Under the pieces are notes generated by a model. It did no database searches, was not told the DNA's origin, and saw only the letters and a list, made by a program, of their open reading frames with translations. From a virus (lineage: Duplodnaviria; Heunggongvirae; Uroviricota; Caudoviricetes): a DNA stretch of 6,986 nucleotides. The position numbers and the translations under genes are program-made. The stretch covers positions 1 to 6,986 of IMG/VR virus record IMGVR_UViG_2690316285_000008; one strand, 5' to 3'. Position 1 is the first letter of the stretch, and the number at the start of each line of letters is the position of its first letter. This document shows, in pieces, positions 2,607 through 6,986 of this stretch.

Positions 2607-2631
2607 AAAACAAAAACCCGCCGAAGCGGGT
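2607..2631 (-). terminator. Intrinsic terminator at the 3' end of hok-1 mRNA
   Basis: Minus-strand hairpin CCCGC-UUCG-GCGGG (plus 2617..2630) followed by a U5 run (plus-strand A-run 2612..2616). Confidence 0.5.
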
Positions 2632-2700
2632 TAAGTGTGGGTGCATTGAGGATGCCTGACCCATCAGAGGTGGCGAGGGATTTCTCCCCCGCCTGGTCTC

Positions 2701-2856
2701 TTACTCCTCAGGTTCGTAAGCTGTGAAGACAGCGACCTCCGTCTGGCCGGTTCGAATTCGTACCTCGCAGAGGTCTTTCCTCGTTACCAGTGCCGTCACT
2801 ATGACGGTTAAACAGATGACGATCAGGGCGATTAACATCGCCTTTTGCTGCTTCAT
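2701..2856 (-). CDS. hokD: Hok-family type I toxin (51 aa), hok-1
   Basis: Translation MKQQKAMLIALIVICLTVIVTALVTRKDLCEVRIRTGQTEVAVFTAYEPEE from ATG 2856..2854, preceded by AGGAG with a 9-nt spacer. Matches my recollection of HokD/RelF and the Hok fold (TM helix then conserved Cys). It is the C-terminal part of the 70-aa ORF in the track. Confidence 0.85.
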   Translation of the reverse strand: MKQQKAMLIALIVICLTVIVTALVTRKDLCEVRIRTGQTEVAVFTAYEPEE

Positions 2857-2913
2857 AGCCTGCTTCTCCTTGCCTTTCGGCACGTAAGAGGCTAACCTAG
2901 ATTTGCCGTTCAT
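2701..2913 (-). CDS. Mok-like reading frame (70 aa), an in-frame N-terminal extension of hok-1
   Basis: ATG at 2913..2911 with GAGG 8 nt upstream; frame is continuous with hok (MNGKSRLASYVPKGKEKQA-MKQQ...), as I recall for chromosomal mok/hok pairs. Confidence 0.5.
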   Translation of the reverse strand: MNGKSRLASYVPKGKEKQAMKQQKAMLIALIVICLTVIVTALVTRKDLCEVRIRTGQTEVAVFTAYEPEE

Positions 2914-2978
2914 AGATTGAGCCTCAGATTAATGTTAAGCGTCTTGCCGGACGCGTAATGTTAACTGGGGCTTTTCTC
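2904..2978 (+). ncRNA. Candidate Sok antisense RNA for hok-1
   Basis: Plus-strand promoter-like TTGCCT (2870..2875), 17-nt spacer, TAACCT (2893..2898). Long imperfect hairpin with outer stem GCCUCAG (2921..2927) and CUGGGGC (2965..2971), followed by UUUUCUC (2972..2978). Antisense to the mok SD and start. Boundaries are approximate. Confidence 0.4.
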
Positions 2979-3026
2979 TATCTGCCTTTTGGTGTTCATG
3001 CCTGAGACAGATAGCCTCAAGCACCC

Positions 3027-3060
3027 GCTGCAATTCTACTTAACTCTCCTTTTCCCGCAA
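3027..3060 (-). promoter_or_regulatory. Candidate hok-1 mRNA promoter
   Basis: Minus strand TTGCGG (3060..3055), 16-nt spacer, TAGAAT (3038..3033), predicted start near 3026. The predicted 5' end GGUGCUUGAGG (plus 3015..3025) is complementary, with a 1-nt bulge, to a 3' element at plus 2640..2651, like the hok tac/fbi pairing. Confidence 0.4.
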
Positions 3061-3067
3061 ACCGTTT

Positions 3068-3151
3068 TTATCCCCAGCGGCAAATCGAATACACCACCAG
3101 CGCCACCGCCATCGCAATTCCTACCGTTGTTAATGCTTCAGGCCAGGTCAT
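3068..3151 (-). CDS. Small hydrophobic peptide, 27 aa ([27 protein letters not shown]), copy 1
   Basis: ATG at 3151..3149 overlaps the 114-aa gene stop (ATGA). GGAGGA lies 9 nt upstream. A second copy at 4601..4684 differs by 4 synonymous and 1 conservative change. Below the ORF-track length cut-off. Confidence 0.55.
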
Positions 3152-3492
3152 CGTAAAATATCCTCCACGCTTATCAGTCCGTTCCGCTCCAGATAACTCA
3201 TCGCCTTATCCGGTAATTTGCAGTCTGGCTTCGCTTTTCTCAGTTGCCAGGTTAACTGCTTTACCAGCATGGTTAACTCATCGACCAGACGCTGATATCC
3301 CACTGGTTTGTATTCATGCAATTTACCGGCTGGCTCTGCTGCCAGCGATACCAGTGCGATTTCCAGAACAGCAATATCCATCTTATATGTGCGGATGATG
3401 TCATGGTCGATTGTGCCCGGTATGCACAGTCTCTGTGCTTCAATAGTCTCCTCTGCGTGAGCTATTAACTGCTCTCTGGTAAAAGTCGTCAT
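3148..3492 (-). CDS. Hypothetical prophage protein, 114 aa (MTT-start paralog family)
   Basis: ATG at 3492..3490 overlaps the 55-aa gene stop (ATGA) inside a conserved 48-bp junction. N-terminus MTTFTREQL and a VSLAAEP segment are shared with the 55-aa and 221-aa proteins. Confidence 0.65.
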
Positions 3493-3897
3493 GCCGTAGC
3501 CCCTTCTTGATATTTTTCAAACCAGAACACAACCGGCTCTGCTTCCAGCGATGCCAGCGCAATCCGTGCCAGTTCCATTTGTTCACCACGGGTAAGCCCG
3601 TTTTCAAGCGGGTTTTTAATGAACAATTCAATACGTTCTTTGGTAATAGTGGTCATGTGTTACTCCTTAACCCGCAGTGCTTTCAACTGATGAGGGGAAC
3701 AAAATCTTTTCATCAAACCCTGCATTCATATCATGAACAGCAACACACCAATCCATCGACGAACGATTATCAAGAGCCTCCATGATTTCATCCATGCGGC
3801 GTAGGTCATACAGGTAAATGCTTTTATCGCCAATGGTGTAAAAGCCAATTTTTTTCGGTGATGGATGAGGTGTACTGGCAATAGCGGACACTACCAT
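3274..3897. repeat. Direct repeat U, copy 1 (identical to 6363..6986)
   Basis: Visual alignment shows identity over 623 bp at a constant offset of 3089 bp. The left boundary falls inside the 114-aa gene; the right boundary is limited by the window end. Confidence 0.85.
3489..3656 (-). CDS. Hypothetical small protein, 55 aa ([55 protein letters not shown])
   Basis: ATG at 3656..3654 with GGAG 6 nt upstream. Ends with the same 16 residues as the HNH protein because both 3' ends lie in the conserved junction. Not in the ORF track (under 60 aa). Identical copy at 6578..6745. Confidence 0.55.
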
Positions 3898-3936
3898 TTG
3901 TTCTTTTTTTAAGCAGCCATCTGATGAATCGGGCAT
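3667..3936 (-). CDS. Hypothetical prophage protein (89 aa from ATG 3936; 76 aa if ATG 3897 is used)
   Basis: Protein-like translation (...KKIGFYTIGDKSIYLYDLRRMDEIMEALDNRSSMDWCVAVHDMNAGFDEKILFPSS). Neither ATG has a clear SD. The track's 133-aa version starts at a GTG inside the hok-2 3' UTR and is probably over-extended. Confidence 0.45.
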   Translation of the reverse strand: MPDSSDGCLKKEQMVVSAIASTPHPSPKKIGFYTIGDKSIYLYDLRRMDEIMEALDNRSSMDWCVAVHDMNAGFDEKILFPSSVESTAG

Positions 3937-3978
3937 TATCTGAACATAAAACACTATCAATAAGTTGGAGTCATTACC

Positions 3979-4000
3979 AAAAAAACCGCCGAAACGGGTT
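3979..4000 (-). terminator. Weak terminator-like element at the 3' end of hok-2 mRNA
   Basis: Degenerate counterpart of the hok-1 terminator: short stem followed by a U7 run (plus-strand A-run 3979..3985). Confidence 0.3.
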
Positions 4001-4070
4001 AAGTGCGGGTGCGTTGAGGATGCCTGACACATCAAAGGTGGCGGGAGATTACTCTCCCGCCTGGTCACTC

Positions 4071-4226
4071 TTACTCTCTAGATTCGTAGTCTACGAAAAC
4101 AGCGACCTCCGTCTGGCCGATTCGGATTCGTACCTCGCAGAGGTCTTTCCTCGTTACCAGTGCCGTCACTATGACGGTTAAACAGATGACGATCAGGGCG
4201 ATTAACATCGCCTTTTGCTGCTTCAT
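4071..4226 (-). CDS. Hok-family type I toxin paralog (51 aa), hok-2
   Basis: Translation MKQQKAMLIALIVICLTVIVTALVTRKDLCEVRIRIGQTEVAVFVDYESRE from ATG 4226..4224. Identical to hok-1 through residue 34, diverged in the C-terminal tail. Confidence 0.8.
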   Translation of the reverse strand: MKQQKAMLIALIVICLTVIVTALVTRKDLCEVRIRIGQTEVAVFVDYESRE

Positions 4227-4283
4227 AGCCTGCTTCTCCTTGCCTTTCGGCACGTAAGAGGCTAACCTACATTTGTGAGACAT
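4071..4283 (-). CDS. Mok-like reading frame (70 aa), an in-frame extension of hok-2
   Basis: ATG at 4283..4281; N-terminus MSHKCRLASYVPKGKEKQA then hok in frame. Confidence 0.45.
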   Translation of the reverse strand: MSHKCRLASYVPKGKEKQAMKQQKAMLIALIVICLTVIVTALVTRKDLCEVRIRIGQTEVAVFVDYESRE

Positions 4284-4348
4284 AGATTGGGCCTCAGATT
4301 AATGTTAAGCGTCTTGCAGGACGCGTAATGTTAACTGGGGCTTTTCTC
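4274..4348 (+). ncRNA. Candidate Sok antisense RNA for hok-2
   Basis: Same architecture as sok-1, offset by 1370 bp: hairpin GCCUCAG (4291..4297) / CUGGGGC (4335..4341) followed by UUUUCUC (4342..4348). The 5' single-stranded tail differs from sok-1 at several positions. Confidence 0.4.
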
Positions 4349-4564
4349 TGTCTGCCTTACAGTGACATACCCGAGGCAGACAGCCTCAAGCACCCGCAGC
4401 AATCTTACCGACACCGATAAGAAAACGCTATTTTTTATTGCCAGCACCATCTATCCAGGCTAGTTTATCTGCGTCAGAACGGCGCAATGCGCTCGCCTGA
4501 GATACGTTTACTTGCCATGGTAACAACAGGTAACGGCAATTGCTGTTTCTGTTTTGTTTCCTTC

Positions 4565-4600: not shown

Positions 4601-4684
4601 TTAACCCCAACGGCAAATCGAATACACCACCAGCGCCACCGCCATCGCAATTCCTACCGTGGTGAATGCCTCAGGCCAGGTCAT
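4601..4684 (-). CDS. Small hydrophobic peptide, 27 aa ([27 protein letters not shown]), copy 2
   Basis: ATG at 4684..4682 overlaps the DUF551-like gene stop (ATGA). AGGAGG lies 7 nt upstream. Followed by the terminator at 4565..4595. Confidence 0.55.
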   Translation of the reverse strand: MTWPEAFTTVGIAMAVALVVYSICRWG

Positions 4685-5046
4685 TGATTCACCTCCTGCG
4701 GTGGTTCCGGTAGCGGCATCCAGTGAGTTGAGCTCTCTACTTCAACGCCGTCTTTGTCCACAAAAGCCATCTTATTCCCGCCACGAGTGGGGCAAAAAAC
4801 CTTATCCCAGGAACCGGGGAATACATTCCCGAGATCATCGAGAAGAATCACATCGCAATATTCAGCAGGAACTGCATCACTACAGCTTATCCAGCCAGCC
4901 GGAGCTACCGGAGAGTTGCCAGCCTTACGCATGGCCATTTCCACGATTTCAACCATATCTCCTGGTGGAATTTTACAAAGTTGCCCAATACATTTCTGCT
5001 GCCTGGCATATTCGAGAATGTGCTCCAGTTTGGTTCGATTAATCAT
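4681..5046 (-). CDS. DUF551-like phage protein (121 aa)
   Basis: ATG at 5046..5044 overlaps the 221-aa gene stop (TAATG); GGGAG lies 7 nt upstream. C-terminal THWMPLPEPP and internal Trp/Gly pattern match my recollection of the DUF551 family. Confidence 0.65.
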   Translation of the reverse strand: MINRTKLEHILEYARQQKCIGQLCKIPPGDMVEIVEMAMRKAGNSPVAPAGWISCSDAVPAEYCDVILLDDLGNVFPGSWDKVFCPTRGGNKMAFVDKDGVEVESSTHWMPLPEPPQEVNQ

Positions 5047-5711
5047 TATTTATCTCCCTTAAGCATGGCAGCGCGGCAGGCGTTCCAGCCATCAACATAA
5101 TCAAACGTATTACTATCGTTTGGCCCGATTTCATCCGGCACTATCGGCTCTGGTTGGATAGTGACGTTGGCAAAGGCAGCACGCAAACCGGTTTTAATTT
5201 CTTCGATTTCATCAGAGCCAAGCGATGAATCTGACAGTGCGTGATGGAATGCGTAAGCCATGTCGTCGTTTACTGCAACCGGCACTGCCGGCGCTGCGTA
5301 AAGCGGTGTTATATCTGCCCGAAAATCACATGCTTTATGCAGTCGTACCCAACACTCAACTTCCGCTTTGTCAAAATATATAGCAGTGAACGTATTAGAT
5401 TCCTGGTCAACTTGAGTAAACGTCACCTTCCACGCTACAGCTACGGCTTTCCATCCATCAGGTTGTCGCATTCGCGGGGCAGCATAAAGCTCATGCATTC
5501 CATCAGGCAGCGAGTGACCCACATACTCACCGAACCCGTCAATACACATGCCCCCATCTTCAACAATGCATTCCGCTACAGGCTCTGCTTCCAGTGATGC
5601 CAGAGCGATAAGCGCCAGTTCACGAATTTCACCGCCGTCTATATCGTCAATATCATCGCGGCCAGAAATGTTAGCCAGCCATTGCAGTCGCTCTTTGGTA
5701 ATAGTGGTCAT
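5046..5711 (-). CDS. Hypothetical prophage protein, 221 aa (MTT-start paralog family)
   Basis: ATG at 5711..5709 overlaps the HNH stop (ATGA) in the conserved junction, with AAGGGG 7 nt upstream. N-terminus MTTITKERL and [12 protein letters not shown] are shared with the 55-aa protein. LYAAP occurs twice internally. Confidence 0.7.
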   Translation of the reverse strand: MTTITKERLQWLANISGRDDIDDIDGGEIRELALIALASLEAEPVAECIVEDGGMCIDGFGEYVGHSLPDGMHELYAAPRMRQPDGWKAVAVAWKVTFTQVDQESNTFTAIYFDKAEVECWVRLHKACDFRADITPLYAAPAVPVAVNDDMAYAFHHALSDSSLGSDEIEEIKTGLRAAFANVTIQPEPIVPDEIGPNDSNTFDYVDGWNACRAAMLKGDK

Positions 5712-6073
5712 GCCGTAGCCCCTTCTTGATATTTTTCAAACCAGAACACAACCGGGTCAGATTTCATTTCAACCAATCCCATACGAACCAGCGCTTTGCC
5801 TTTCCCGGACGCAAGGAATTCACGACGACCATCACTGATAATTCGTCGATAATCTTCCAGGCTACTGCAATGCTTGTGCAGATTGCATGGGTGGCATGCT
5901 GGTACCATGTTGGATATATCGTCACGTTCCTGGTGAAGCATATTTCCATCAAAACGAATGACCGGTTTTACATGGTCTGCATGCCACTTTTCGCCAAGTT
6001 CGCAGCCGCAATAAGCGCAGCGACCACCGAACTTCATGCGCAGTTCTGCACGTTGTTTTTTCGTCAGTGCCAT
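5708..6073 (-). CDS. HNH endonuclease (121 aa)
   Basis: ATG at 6073..6071 with AAGGAAAG 6 nt upstream. Motifs CAYCGC, HADHVKP, N...PACHPCNLHK fit the HNH zinc-finger nuclease pattern. The track's 151-aa version starts at a TTG. Confidence 0.85.
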   Translation of the reverse strand: MALTKKQRAELRMKFGGRCAYCGCELGEKWHADHVKPVIRFDGNMLHQERDDISNMVPACHPCNLHKHCSSLEDYRRIISDGRREFLASGKGKALVRMGLVEMKSDPVVFWFEKYQEGATA

Positions 6074-6074
6074 A

Positions 6075-6293
6075 TCAGCTTTCCTTATACGGATTAATTT
6101 TATTGTGCAGTGTGTTGAATGACGCCCATACCACGTCGTTATACAATTCAATAACTGGCTCAATTATTTTTCCGATTATCCAGACAAAAATTAGCGGGGA
6201 TATCGGTGTCATCAACACGATAAACAGAATGAGAAACAGGAATTCTGTTGTTCTACTCTTTCGCGGATATTTTTTTCTAAATAATGTAACCAT
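6075..6293 (-). CDS. Candidate small membrane protein (72 aa) in an AT-rich segment
   Basis: ATG at 6293..6291; Lys/Arg-rich N-terminus then a hydrophobic stretch FLFLILFIVLMTPISPLIFVWIIGKII. Stop is 1 nt before the HNH start. GC content of 6090..6300 is clearly lower than the surroundings, so chance hydrophobicity is possible. Confidence 0.4.
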   Translation of the reverse strand: MVTLFRKKYPRKSRTTEFLFLILFIVLMTPISPLIFVWIIGKIIEPVIELYNDVVWASFNTLHNKINPYKES

Positions 6294-6296
6294 TCA

Positions 6297-6581
6297 TTAC
6301 CGCCCTTTCGAGCGGTCTCCTGATGATTTGAGGGTGCAGAAATCCCTCCGGTTAAGGATTAATAACTCATCGACCAGACGCTGATATCCCACTGGTTTGT
6401 ATTCATGCAATTTACCGGCTGGCTCTGCTGCCAGCGATACCAGTGCGATTTCCAGAACAGCAATATCCATCTTATATGTGCGGATGATGTCATGGTCGAT
6501 TGTGCCCGGTATGCACAGTCTCTGTGCTTCAATAGTCTCCTCTGCGTGAGCTATTAACTGCTCTCTGGTAAAAGTCGTCAT
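6297..6581 (-). pseudogene. Truncated/chimeric copy of the 114-aa gene
   Basis: First 73 codons are identical to 3148..3492; identity ends at the repeat boundary (6363) and the frame runs 21 more codons into unrelated AT-rich DNA before TAA at 6299..6297. Confidence 0.5.
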
Positions 6582-6745
6582 GCCGTAGCCCCTTCTTGAT
6601 ATTTTTCAAACCAGAACACAACCGGCTCTGCTTCCAGCGATGCCAGCGCAATCCGTGCCAGTTCCATTTGTTCACCACGGGTAAGCCCGTTTTCAAGCGG
6701 GTTTTTAATGAACAATTCAATACGTTCTTTGGTAATAGTGGTCAT
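6578..6745 (-). CDS. Hypothetical small protein, 55 aa, identical second copy
   Basis: Lies in the exact repeat (offset 3089 bp from 3489..3656), with the same RBS and ATGA overlap. Confidence 0.5.
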
Positions 6746-6755
6746 GTGTTACTCC

Positions 6756-6986
6756 TTAACCCGCAGTGCTTTCAACTGATGAGGGGAACAAAATCTTTTC
6801 ATCAAACCCTGCATTCATATCATGAACAGCAACACACCAATCCATCGACGAACGATTATCAAGAGCCTCCATGATTTCATCCATGCGGCGTAGGTCATAC
6901 AGGTAAATGCTTTTATCGCCAATGGTGTAAAAGCCAATTTTTTTCGGTGATGGATGAGGTGTACTGGCAATAGCGGACACTACCAT
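6756..6986 (-). CDS. Second copy of the 89/76-aa hypothetical protein; 5' end may lie beyond the window
   Basis: Identical to 3667..3897. The window ends exactly on the ATG equivalent to 3897, so the equivalent of the 3936 start would be outside the window. Confidence 0.45.
   Translation of the reverse strand: MVVSAIASTPHPSPKKIGFYTIGDKSIYLYDLRRMDEIMEALDNRSSMDWCVAVHDMNAGFDEKILFPSSVESTAG

Follow-up and report, generated by a model that had tools for sequence, protein, structure and literature searches.

The 48-nt sequence that recurs at three gene boundaries of the DNA analyzed here appears to be the 3′-terminal part of a small HNH endonuclease gene of prophages and not a free-standing linker. 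We propose, with a probability of about 0.73, that this gene end has been recycled, i.e., that outside the HNH gene it is a relic left behind by cassette replacement, and that it serves as a passive patch of homology at which prophage modules are joined. The 55-aa ORF that carries the relic most likely originated in a DUF4014-HNH-114 array in which an X-eaA′ segment took the place of the HNH interior, as judged from sequence comparisons of the alternative arrangements found in other prophages.

The window, that is, the whole stretch of 6,986 nt that was analyzed, belongs to the early (or nin-type) part of a lambdoid prophage of E. coli/Shigella, and all of its genes are on the minus strand. 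In the order of transcription, it consists of X′, the 55-aa ORF, a 94-aa gene (the truncated form of the 114-aa gene), DUF4014, HNH, the 221-aa gene and the gene for a DUF551 protein, followed by a 27-codon ORF, sok/hok, the remnant of an IS1 end, X′, the 55-aa ORF and the 114-aa gene, and then by another 27-codon ORF, sok/hok, genes for proteins of 87 and 92 aa, DUF968 and RusA. None of the complete E. coli genomes covers more than 72% of the window in one place. The features associated with the three junctions are the following.

3068..3151, minus strand: 27-codon hydrophobic ORF, the ATG of which overlaps the stop of the 114-aa gene
3148..3492, minus strand: 114-aa gene, an Eaa-like paralogue of the N-terminal module (MTTFTREQL...VSLAAEP), probably coupled to the 55-aa ORF
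3471..3488, minus strand: codons 2-7 of the downstream gene (TTFTRE), with equivalents at 5690-5707 and 6560-6577
3489..3536, minus strand: 48-mer copy 1, last 15 codons and stop of the 55-aa ORF, a putative relic of the HNH 3′ end; Shine-Dalgarno (SD) sequence at 3500-3506 and ATGA overlap with the 114-aa gene at 3489-3492
3489..3656, minus strand: 55-aa ORF, a chimera, with codons 1-41 (3534-3656) as a P22 eaA-type N-terminal module and codons 42-55 as the HNH tail
3667..3897, minus strand: gene X (phrog_1714), 5′-truncated relative to the 87-aa form; second copy at 6756-6986
3274-3897 and 6363-6986: duplication of 624 nt, 100% identical, the second copy of which is cut by the window end
4601-4684, minus strand: copy of the 27-codon ORF, 93% identical, overlapping the stop of the DUF551 gene
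5046..5711, minus strand: 221-aa gene, Eaa-like N-terminal module with a different C-terminal part, probably coupled to HNH
5708..5755, minus strand: 48-mer copy 2, last 15 codons and stop of the HNH gene, its native position; SD sequence GAAGGGG at 5719-5725 and ATGA stop/start overlap with the 221-aa gene at 5708-5711
5708..6073, minus strand: HNH endonuclease gene, 121 aa (Pfam PF01844, phrog_2118)
6075..6293, minus strand: DUF4014 gene, in other prophages the conserved left neighbor of HNH and of the X-eaA′ cassette
6297..6581, minus strand: 94-aa gene, the truncated copy of the 114-aa gene, which diverges at the rearrangement junction 6362/6363
6578..6625, minus strand: 48-mer copy 3, putative relic identical to copy 1, within the 624-nt duplication
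6578..6745, minus strand: second, identical copy of the 55-aa ORF

The 55-, 114- and 221-aa proteins and gene X have no family in Pfam or NCBIfam, and their matches are found only in PHROGs, to families of unknown function.

The 48-nt repeat and its contexts

The 48-mer (TCATGCCGTAGCCCCTTCTTGATATTTTTCAAACCAGAACACAACCGG) was found with 0 mismatches at 3489-3536, 5708-5755 and 6578-6625, as a preliminary description of this DNA had reported, while none of 200 dinucleotide shuffles (0/200) contained any match to it. Its minus-strand reading is CCGGTTGTGTTCTGGTTTGAAAAATATCAAGAAGGGGCTACGGCATGA, with the codons CCG GTT GTG TTC TGG TTT GAA AAA TAT CAA GAA GGG GCT ACG GCA TGA, which correspond to 15 residues and a stop codon and not to the 16 residues originally counted. 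The assignment of the 48-mer to the ends of both the 55-aa ORF (3489-3656 and 6578-6745) and the HNH gene (5708-6073) holds, and so does that of a ribosome-binding site and an ATGA start of the next gene to the same 48 nt. As read from the sequence, the SD motif GAAGGGG lies 7 nt before the ATG and inside the upstream ORF, and the stop of that ORF and the start of the next gene overlap as ATGA. The ATGA overlap and the SD arrangement recur in most enterobacterial HNH loci. The 48-mer is thus predicted to couple the translation of the next Eaa-like gene, the one with the MTT[IF]T[KR]E start, to that of the ORF that it terminates.

Beyond these elements, the junctions are devoid of recognizable signals in the analyses conducted. 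In neither context did the junction mRNA fold better than shuffled sequences (z = +0.56 and +1.31), and a scan for promoters and terminators around copy 1 detected no promoter or convincing terminator in the 48-mer, the only item found being a weak 5-bp stem across the upstream edge of the 48-mer that is at chance level. An Rfam scan matched the two sok RNAs and yielded no match at the junctions. Hence, no nucleotide-level constraint on the 48-mer is evident beyond those of coding and the SD sequence.

The preliminary description counted three copies. All three sites are exact, but they represent only two independent contexts, because copies 1 and 3 sit within one perfect duplication of 624 nt. 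Copy 2 has only 66 nt in common with the other two copies, and its flanks are unrelated to theirs: of the next 18 nt after the 48-mer, 15 agree between the 114 and 221 contexts, and the repeat that includes them is 66 nt long at 95% identity. At the rearrangement junction 6362/6363, the gene downstream of copy 3 becomes the 94-aa truncated form of the 114-aa gene. This junction is absent from IMG/VR and is contiguous in no complete E. coli genome, and the 94-aa junction protein had no record in protein searches. Both the perfect duplication of copies 1 and 3 and a junction found nowhere else in IMG/VR and the complete E. coli genomes are compatible with a simple local duplication, according to which the copies would have come only from the duplication of a segment and would have no wider significance. 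The 66-nt limit of the homology to copy 2, with its unrelated flanks, and the wide occurrence of the 48-mer elsewhere in both contexts leave that explanation next to no probability; for copy 2 it is refuted by the wide spread, and it holds only between copies 1 and 3. Within the window, both contexts probably share the 48-mer by descent from an HNH gene.

The HNH tail and the 55-codon ORF

The 121-aa HNH protein has hundreds of homologues. Its tail encoded by the 48-mer contains the C-terminal motif P-V-V-F-W-F-E-K-Y, which is conserved in the HNH family; the P-V-V-F-W-F-E part is kept in homologues to about 40% identity, among them those of Betaproteobacteria. In an alignment of the window protein with 20 homologues to about 50% identity, including those of Yersinia, Klebsiella, Comamonas and Aquabacterium, the HNH core columns C-x2-C ... 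H-x-D-H ... N ... C-x2-C-N are conserved, and G99, L100, P107, F110 and E113 are invariant among all 21 sequences. At 80 loci from a one-genome-per-species collection, which comprised Gamma- and Betaproteobacteria and some records labeled Bacteroidota, most HNH homologues retain P[VI][VI]F[WY]FE, to about 40% identity. The AlphaFold model of the protein (mean pLDDT of 88.6) is predicted with confidence also in the tail, where residues 101-110 have an average pLDDT of 87 and residues 111-119 form a helix. The model possesses an HNH fold, for which the matches in the PDB are weak and generic (Cas9 HNH, Cap5 and Gme HNH), with no match at E <= 0.001 in the PDB fold search. These results indicate that the tail is a native structural part of the HNH nuclease family. 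Consequently, the same tail on the 55-aa ORF, residues 31-54 of which match profile positions 252-275 of the HNH family phrog_2118 in PHROGs, requires a historical explanation.

The 55-aa ORF is an eaA′::′HNH chimera. The DNA of its head, together with the ribosome-binding region, has 92% identity with the 5′ end of P22 eaA, and X plus the 55-aa head have a 95% DNA match in Salmonella phage VSe13, in which X follows an Ead/Ea22-like gene and is followed by a full-length eaA (DUF550). A three-way DNA alignment places the switch from eaA to HNH at the microhomology GA(G/C)CC(G/T)GT, which encodes E/D-P-V and is located inside both ORFs. To our knowledge, neither this junction nor the chimeric nature of the 55-aa ORF has been described in the literature accessible without subscription, to which our search extended.

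The relationship among the 55-, 114- and 221-aa proteins that had been noticed from their common MTT[IF]T[KR]E starts and from the LASLEAEP/VSLAAEP motif is confirmed by alignment, in which M1, T3, E7, A30, I32, A33, L34, S36 and L37 are the invariant columns. Early proteins of the Ea22 and EaA types consist of a conserved N-terminal segment and of C-terminal domains that can be exchanged, DUF550 and DUF551 among them (PMC10834534). Similarly, the 55-, 114- and 221-aa proteins combine an N-terminal module (MTT.T.E ... IALxSL.AEP) with unrelated C-terminal parts. The module is of the EaA type, lacks the Ead/Ea22 coiled-coil signature and has no Pfam match. In the protein database, the N-terminal module of the 55-aa ORF is joined to many different C-termini, in proteins named Eaa, DUF550 and DUF551, and C-terminal parts also follow the module in the 114- and 221-aa paralogues. 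Unlike the Ea22/EaA proteins, the 55-aa ORF is without a C-terminal domain, and its module is followed by merely 14 HNH-derived residues. A parallel is offered by gene 31 of Salmonella phage epsilon34, in the early region of a phage of the P22-like or lambdoid kind, in which the N-terminus of an ea-family gene, eaE, is likewise in frame with the coding sequence of a putative HNH homing endonuclease (PMC2629481). The epsilon34 gene retains a whole HNH domain, which belongs to another HNH family, whereas the 55-aa ORF has just the last 14 codons.

The 55-aa ORF and its 61-aa N-module variants are followed by the 114-aa gene in every surveyed occurrence with a readable downstream gene. This constant pairing fits one fusion event and a single lineage. 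Three N-module variants (P0122, P0230 and P0240) have an identical tail and can be understood most easily as the outcome of one fusion followed by exchanges within the conserved segment. The chimeric ORF is uninterrupted and frequent, accounting for about 60 of the 100 exact occurrences of the 48-mer, and 408 E. coli records match a 77-mer that includes the 48-mer at 99% or more. Such an abundance, together with the three variants, could point to selection for the 55-aa product itself, the tail of which might, for instance, mimic or compete with the C-terminus of HNH. We consider a functional small protein of this kind very improbable: an intact frame is to be expected anyway, as translation through it would bring ribosomes to the coupled start codon of the 114-aa gene, the product belongs to no Pfam or NCBIfam family, and recombination after a single fusion is the simplest account of the variants. 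As regards annotation, the 55-aa "hypothetical protein" that is widespread among E. coli prophages is an eaA′::′HNH chimera.

Alternative cassettes between DUF4014 and the 114-aa gene

Two architectures dominate the IMG/VR contigs with the exact 48-mer. One is DUF4014-X-55-114-hok, and the other is DUF4014-HNH, followed by 114, 221-DUF551 or others and then by hok. HNH is present or absent at one locus between DUF4014 and the 114-aa gene, which can be written as DUF4014-(HNH or X-55)-114-hok, and the variable slot is bounded on its right by the conserved 27-codon ORF. For instance, a comparison of the loci L003 (X-55-114) and L031 (HNH-114) shows homology across DUF4014 and for about 27 nt into the first ORF, then a divergent stretch of 362 nt in the former and 289 nt in the latter, and then 99.6% identity that sets in 3 nt ahead of the 48-mer and continues across the 114-aa gene. 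In the allele that lacks HNH, the final 48 nt of that gene are still present, together with a different cassette of 362 nt.

At the left side of the slot, the patch TGATATGGCA...GAC(A/G)AAAAA is common to the boundaries of DUF4014 with HNH, of DUF4014 with X and, in VSe13, of Ead with X. As X has its N-terminus (MATLTKKEQAWL) in VSe13 as well, this end is its own, and the left patch is therefore a resemblance between two gene starts and not a remnant of HNH. The alternative that the N-terminus of X (MATLTKKE...) is a 5′ remnant of HNH was ruled out on the same grounds.

Based on these comparisons, we propose that the ancestral array was DUF4014-HNH-114-hok and that an X-eaA segment of the P22-like-phage type was swapped into it, replacing roughly codons 9-106 of HNH. 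The left crossover would have occurred at TGATATGGCA...GAC(A/G)AAAAA near the gene start and the right crossover at GA(G/C)CC(G/T)GT. The product would be the 55-codon eaA′::′HNH chimeric ORF, in which the HNH stop, the SD sequence and the coupled start of the 114-aa gene were kept. That the interior of HNH was lost, and not that an HNH core was gained, we infer solely from the tail being native to HNH. The relic may persist intact because its 48 nt still supply the stop, the SD sequence and the coupled start for the 114-aa gene, which would be a sufficient reason. With both breakpoints mapped to patches of 8-30 nt, the formation of a lambdoid mosaic joint can be followed at this locus in full detail, and the joint is of a type in which a relic would keep the stop, the ribosome-binding site and the coupled start while the gene body is swapped.

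A small HNH gene that lies between other genes and is present or absent at a fixed locus with conserved flanks also resembles the free-standing HNH homing genes of phages. Were the HNH protein such a mobile, free-standing homing endonuclease, the 48-mer and the gene start would be a homology arm or a target, and the identical copies of the 48-mer would reflect homing and co-conversion. The HNH motif (Pfam PF01844), the presence and absence of the gene at a constant position, with DUF4014 on one side and the 114-aa gene on the other, and the occurrence of this widespread family always beside variable genes are in agreement with this idea, as are the ea-gene::HNH fusions known in P22-like phages, such as epsilon34 gene 31 (PMC2629481). 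It is nevertheless improbable. Unlike what is seen with homing HNH genes, the HNH-less allele is not empty; because it keeps the HNH tail and holds another cassette, it points to loss of HNH rather than to a naive target. Moreover, the protein is only 121 aa long and has no recognizable extra DNA-binding domain, and its target site, mobility and cleavage specificity are putative.

An active role could also be imagined in which HNH nicks or cuts the conserved junctions flanking the variable slot, namely the HNH tail with the MTT.TKE gene start and the edge formed by the 27-codon ORF and hok, and thereby stimulates the exchange of Eaa-like cassettes between co-resident prophages. We give this suggestion very little credence; if true, it would make the region a nuclease-driven cassette-shuffling locus.

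Joining at the tail and the linker question

The exact 48-mer was found in 96 IMG/VR contigs and in 11 phage records, including ArgO145 and Stx2a phages. Of the 5,426 complete E. coli genomes, 701 match the 77-mer containing it, in up to three places each. Upstream of the 48-mer are HNH subtype 1, HNH subtype 2 or the 55-/61-aa eaA′ chimeras, and downstream are about six kinds of genes, which include 114, 221, MTTFTNSK.., MITITKERAEIK.. and others. The expectation of the preliminary description that the 48-mer recurs at the boundaries of different genes was borne out, and the sequence is widespread rather than confined to this genome.

The exact 48-mer is one of at least 27 alleles of the tail, which differ at 4-13 of the 48 positions and in which the drift falls at synonymous sites. 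Enterobacterial prophages contain three HNH subtypes, distinguished by the segment that immediately precedes the tail, and several combinations of tail and downstream gene occur with more than one of them. The combination ATV+MSIITTER accompanies subtypes 1 and 2 with a difference of 1 nt, and VSA+MTKFTKER also accompanies subtypes 1 and 2 with a difference of 1 nt. ASA+MTTNHPA is found with subtypes 2 and 3, on tail alleles that are unlike at several positions, and the exact 48-mer is found with subtype 1 and, in locus L005, with subtype 2. In locus pairs with different subtypes, homology sets in at position 0, the first base of the tail, or at -1, with single cases at +9 and -30, although the breakpoints at position 0 are in part simply where alignable sequence begins, as the upstream HNH segment varies by subtype. 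Identity in such pairs is 93-97% on the tail side into the downstream gene vs. about 85% in the 5′ half of HNH. These comparisons indicate that the tail is repeatedly the place where different HNH bodies and different downstream modules appear to have been joined. Joining at such a place is a prediction of the short-conserved-boundary model, in the form in which it is outlined at second hand in PMC3029335. We propose that the tail, conserved for protein reasons, would passively serve as a homology patch, and that general or phage-encoded recombination would repeatedly join HNH bodies to various downstream Eaa-like genes via this patch.

The preliminary description took the 48-mer to be a linker for the shuffling of modules. 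A recurrent mosaic joint it is, but probably not a dedicated element. A dedicated linker, which would be maintained since it promotes homologous recombination between neighboring modules, could account for the gene-boundary position of the 48-mer and its presence in 96 viral contigs with different partners, for the several locus pairs of different HNH subtypes that share the tail and downstream gene from position 0 on, and for the second conserved junction, the 27-codon ORF, that brackets the other side of the variable slot. L005 has only an island of 64 nt in common with the subtype-1 context, both flanks being diverged; this island needs two exchanges or a conversion patch and therefore leans somewhat toward a linker. 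We nonetheless regard a dedicated linker as unlikely, and the 48-mer as a passive patch, for several reasons. First, the 48-mer is the native, family-conserved coding end of HNH, and its conservation is explained by the HNH motif, which is kept well beyond Enterobacterales, together with the SD sequence and the start codon. Second, synonymous positions vary freely, as the at least 27 alleles show. Third, the crossover behind the 55-aa ORF maps to the upstream edge of the 48-mer, inside two ORFs. Fourth, wherever the gene after the 55-aa ORF is readable, it is the 114-aa gene, as in a single lineage. Fifth, no RNA structure, promoter, terminator or Rfam family is associated with the 48-mer. In addition, swaps of downstream genes among HNH arrays could cross anywhere in the approximately 600 nt of shared DUF4014-HNH sequence.

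The shuffling of modules at boundary sequences was reportedly proposed for lambdoid phages, in the form of short conserved sequences at module junctions, by Susskind and Botstein in 1978 and by Clark et al. in 2001, the latter in work on HK620. In the secondary description of lambdoid linkers in PMC3029335, the likeness to the 48-mer is that a short gene-boundary stretch is common to unrelated neighbors and recurs across phages, with exchanges that map at or beside it. Unlike the linkers so described, the 48-mer is the conserved coding end of one family, HNH, plus an SD sequence and a start; it varies synonymously, and in the window it is shared by descent, without a crossover inside it. A so-called linker can therefore be a protein-constrained gene end that is reused by recombination, and this is relevant to the long-standing question of whether phage mosaicism stems from boundary sequences or from illegitimate recombination.

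Relaxed, homeologous recombination by phage recombinases, such as lambda Red (PMC2327257) and Rad52-like recombinases (PMC3945230), is a source of mosaicism. Exchange at short or diverged patches between related prophages and the abrupt start of homology at the tail resemble the products of such recombination, and a pathway of this kind may have operated here; no recombinase gene is found within the window. The junction is a case of ordinary, if unusually clear, lambdoid mosaicism at a gene boundary, and nothing fundamental is changed by it. Finally, ultra-conservation of the 48-mer was considered and rejected, as the identity peak over it is partly forced by the anchoring pattern and many alleles were seen.

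Mosaic structure of the HNH gene

The HNH gene (5708-6073, 121 aa) is itself mosaic, as seen by comparing HNH loci L178-L222 and L097-L176. Its 5' half, which is catalytic, is conserved, with ~85% nucleotide identity between subtypes, and is followed by a ~200-nt stretch for which three unalignable subtypes exist. The conserved tail, consisting of the last 15 codons plus stop, comes directly after this subtype-specific segment. In nearly all cases among the Enterobacterales HNH genes of these loci, the next gene is Eaa-like and is joined via an ATGA overlap.

The 194-aa Shigella sonnei protein P0002 is 100% identical to the window HNH protein across the full HNH length and also contains a DUF4014 domain. 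Because P0002 carries both, a DUF4014-HNH fusion is suggested in some S. sonnei records, resulting either from a frameshift or from another choice of start codon in the annotation.

Similar gene starts across the array

Many genes of the array have similar opening codons, including those starting at 3656, 3492, 5711, 6073 and 6293 of the window and those at loci L223, L177 and L224. The Eaa-like genes begin with MTT[IF]T[KR]E, HNH with MALTKKQ (MTTITKKQ in other prophages), gene X (phrog_1714, 3667-3897) with MATLTKKE and the DUF4014 gene (6075-6293) with M[TV]TLFRKE. Five copies of the ATGACCACTATTACCAAAGA-type start, grouped as repeat family D5, lie in the window. These shared starts look like a recurring gene-start patch, which may serve as additional crossover homology.

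A second gene-boundary junction and the hok/sok loci

A hydrophobic ORF of 27 codons (MTWPEA[LF]...) is present in two copies with 93% nucleotide identity, and two hok/sok loci lie in the same orientation with a spacing of ~1.37 kb.

Repeated features and the IS1 remnant in the window
3068-3151, minus strand, 27-codon hydrophobic ORF
4601-4684, minus strand, 27-codon hydrophobic ORF
2701-3026, same orientation as the next, hok/sok type I toxin-antitoxin locus (Rfam sok and Hok ORF)
4071-4395, hok/sok type I toxin-antitoxin locus (Rfam sok and Hok ORF)
~3927-3978, minus strand, IS1 terminal end remnant of ~50 nt (GGTAATGACTCCAACTTATTGATAGTGTTTTATGTTCAGATAATGCCCGAT)

Both copies of the 27-codon ORF start at an ATGA in which the stop codon of the preceding gene is embedded. 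One copy follows the 114-aa gene and the other follows the DUF551 gene, and these two upstream genes are unrelated. The 27-codon ORF is a second conserved gene-boundary junction, which brackets the variable slot opposite the HNH tail. The two hok/sok loci score 112 and 118 bits with Rfam sok, their Hok ORFs both read MKQQKAMLIALIVICLTVIVTALVTRKDLCEVRIR..., and they fall within a 90% repeat (2612-3034 and 3980-4403).

Possible rearrangements

The segment 3274-3897 is duplicated at 6363-6986 with 100% identity over 624 nt, and the second copy is cut by the window end. At its inner junction (6362/6363), codon 81 of the 114-aa gene is joined to sequence upstream of DUF4014, creating a 94-aa ORF. 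This junction is contiguous in none of the complete E. coli genomes and was not found in IMG/VR, and the 94-aa protein had no recorded match. The junction may have arisen by a rearrangement specific to this strain, or it may be a chimera produced in assembly.

The IS1 end remnant has the second hok/sok locus on one side and the 5'-truncated gene X on the other, and probably marks the rearrangement that took away the normal start of gene X. This same 76-aa form of gene X is also found in several IMG/VR contigs.
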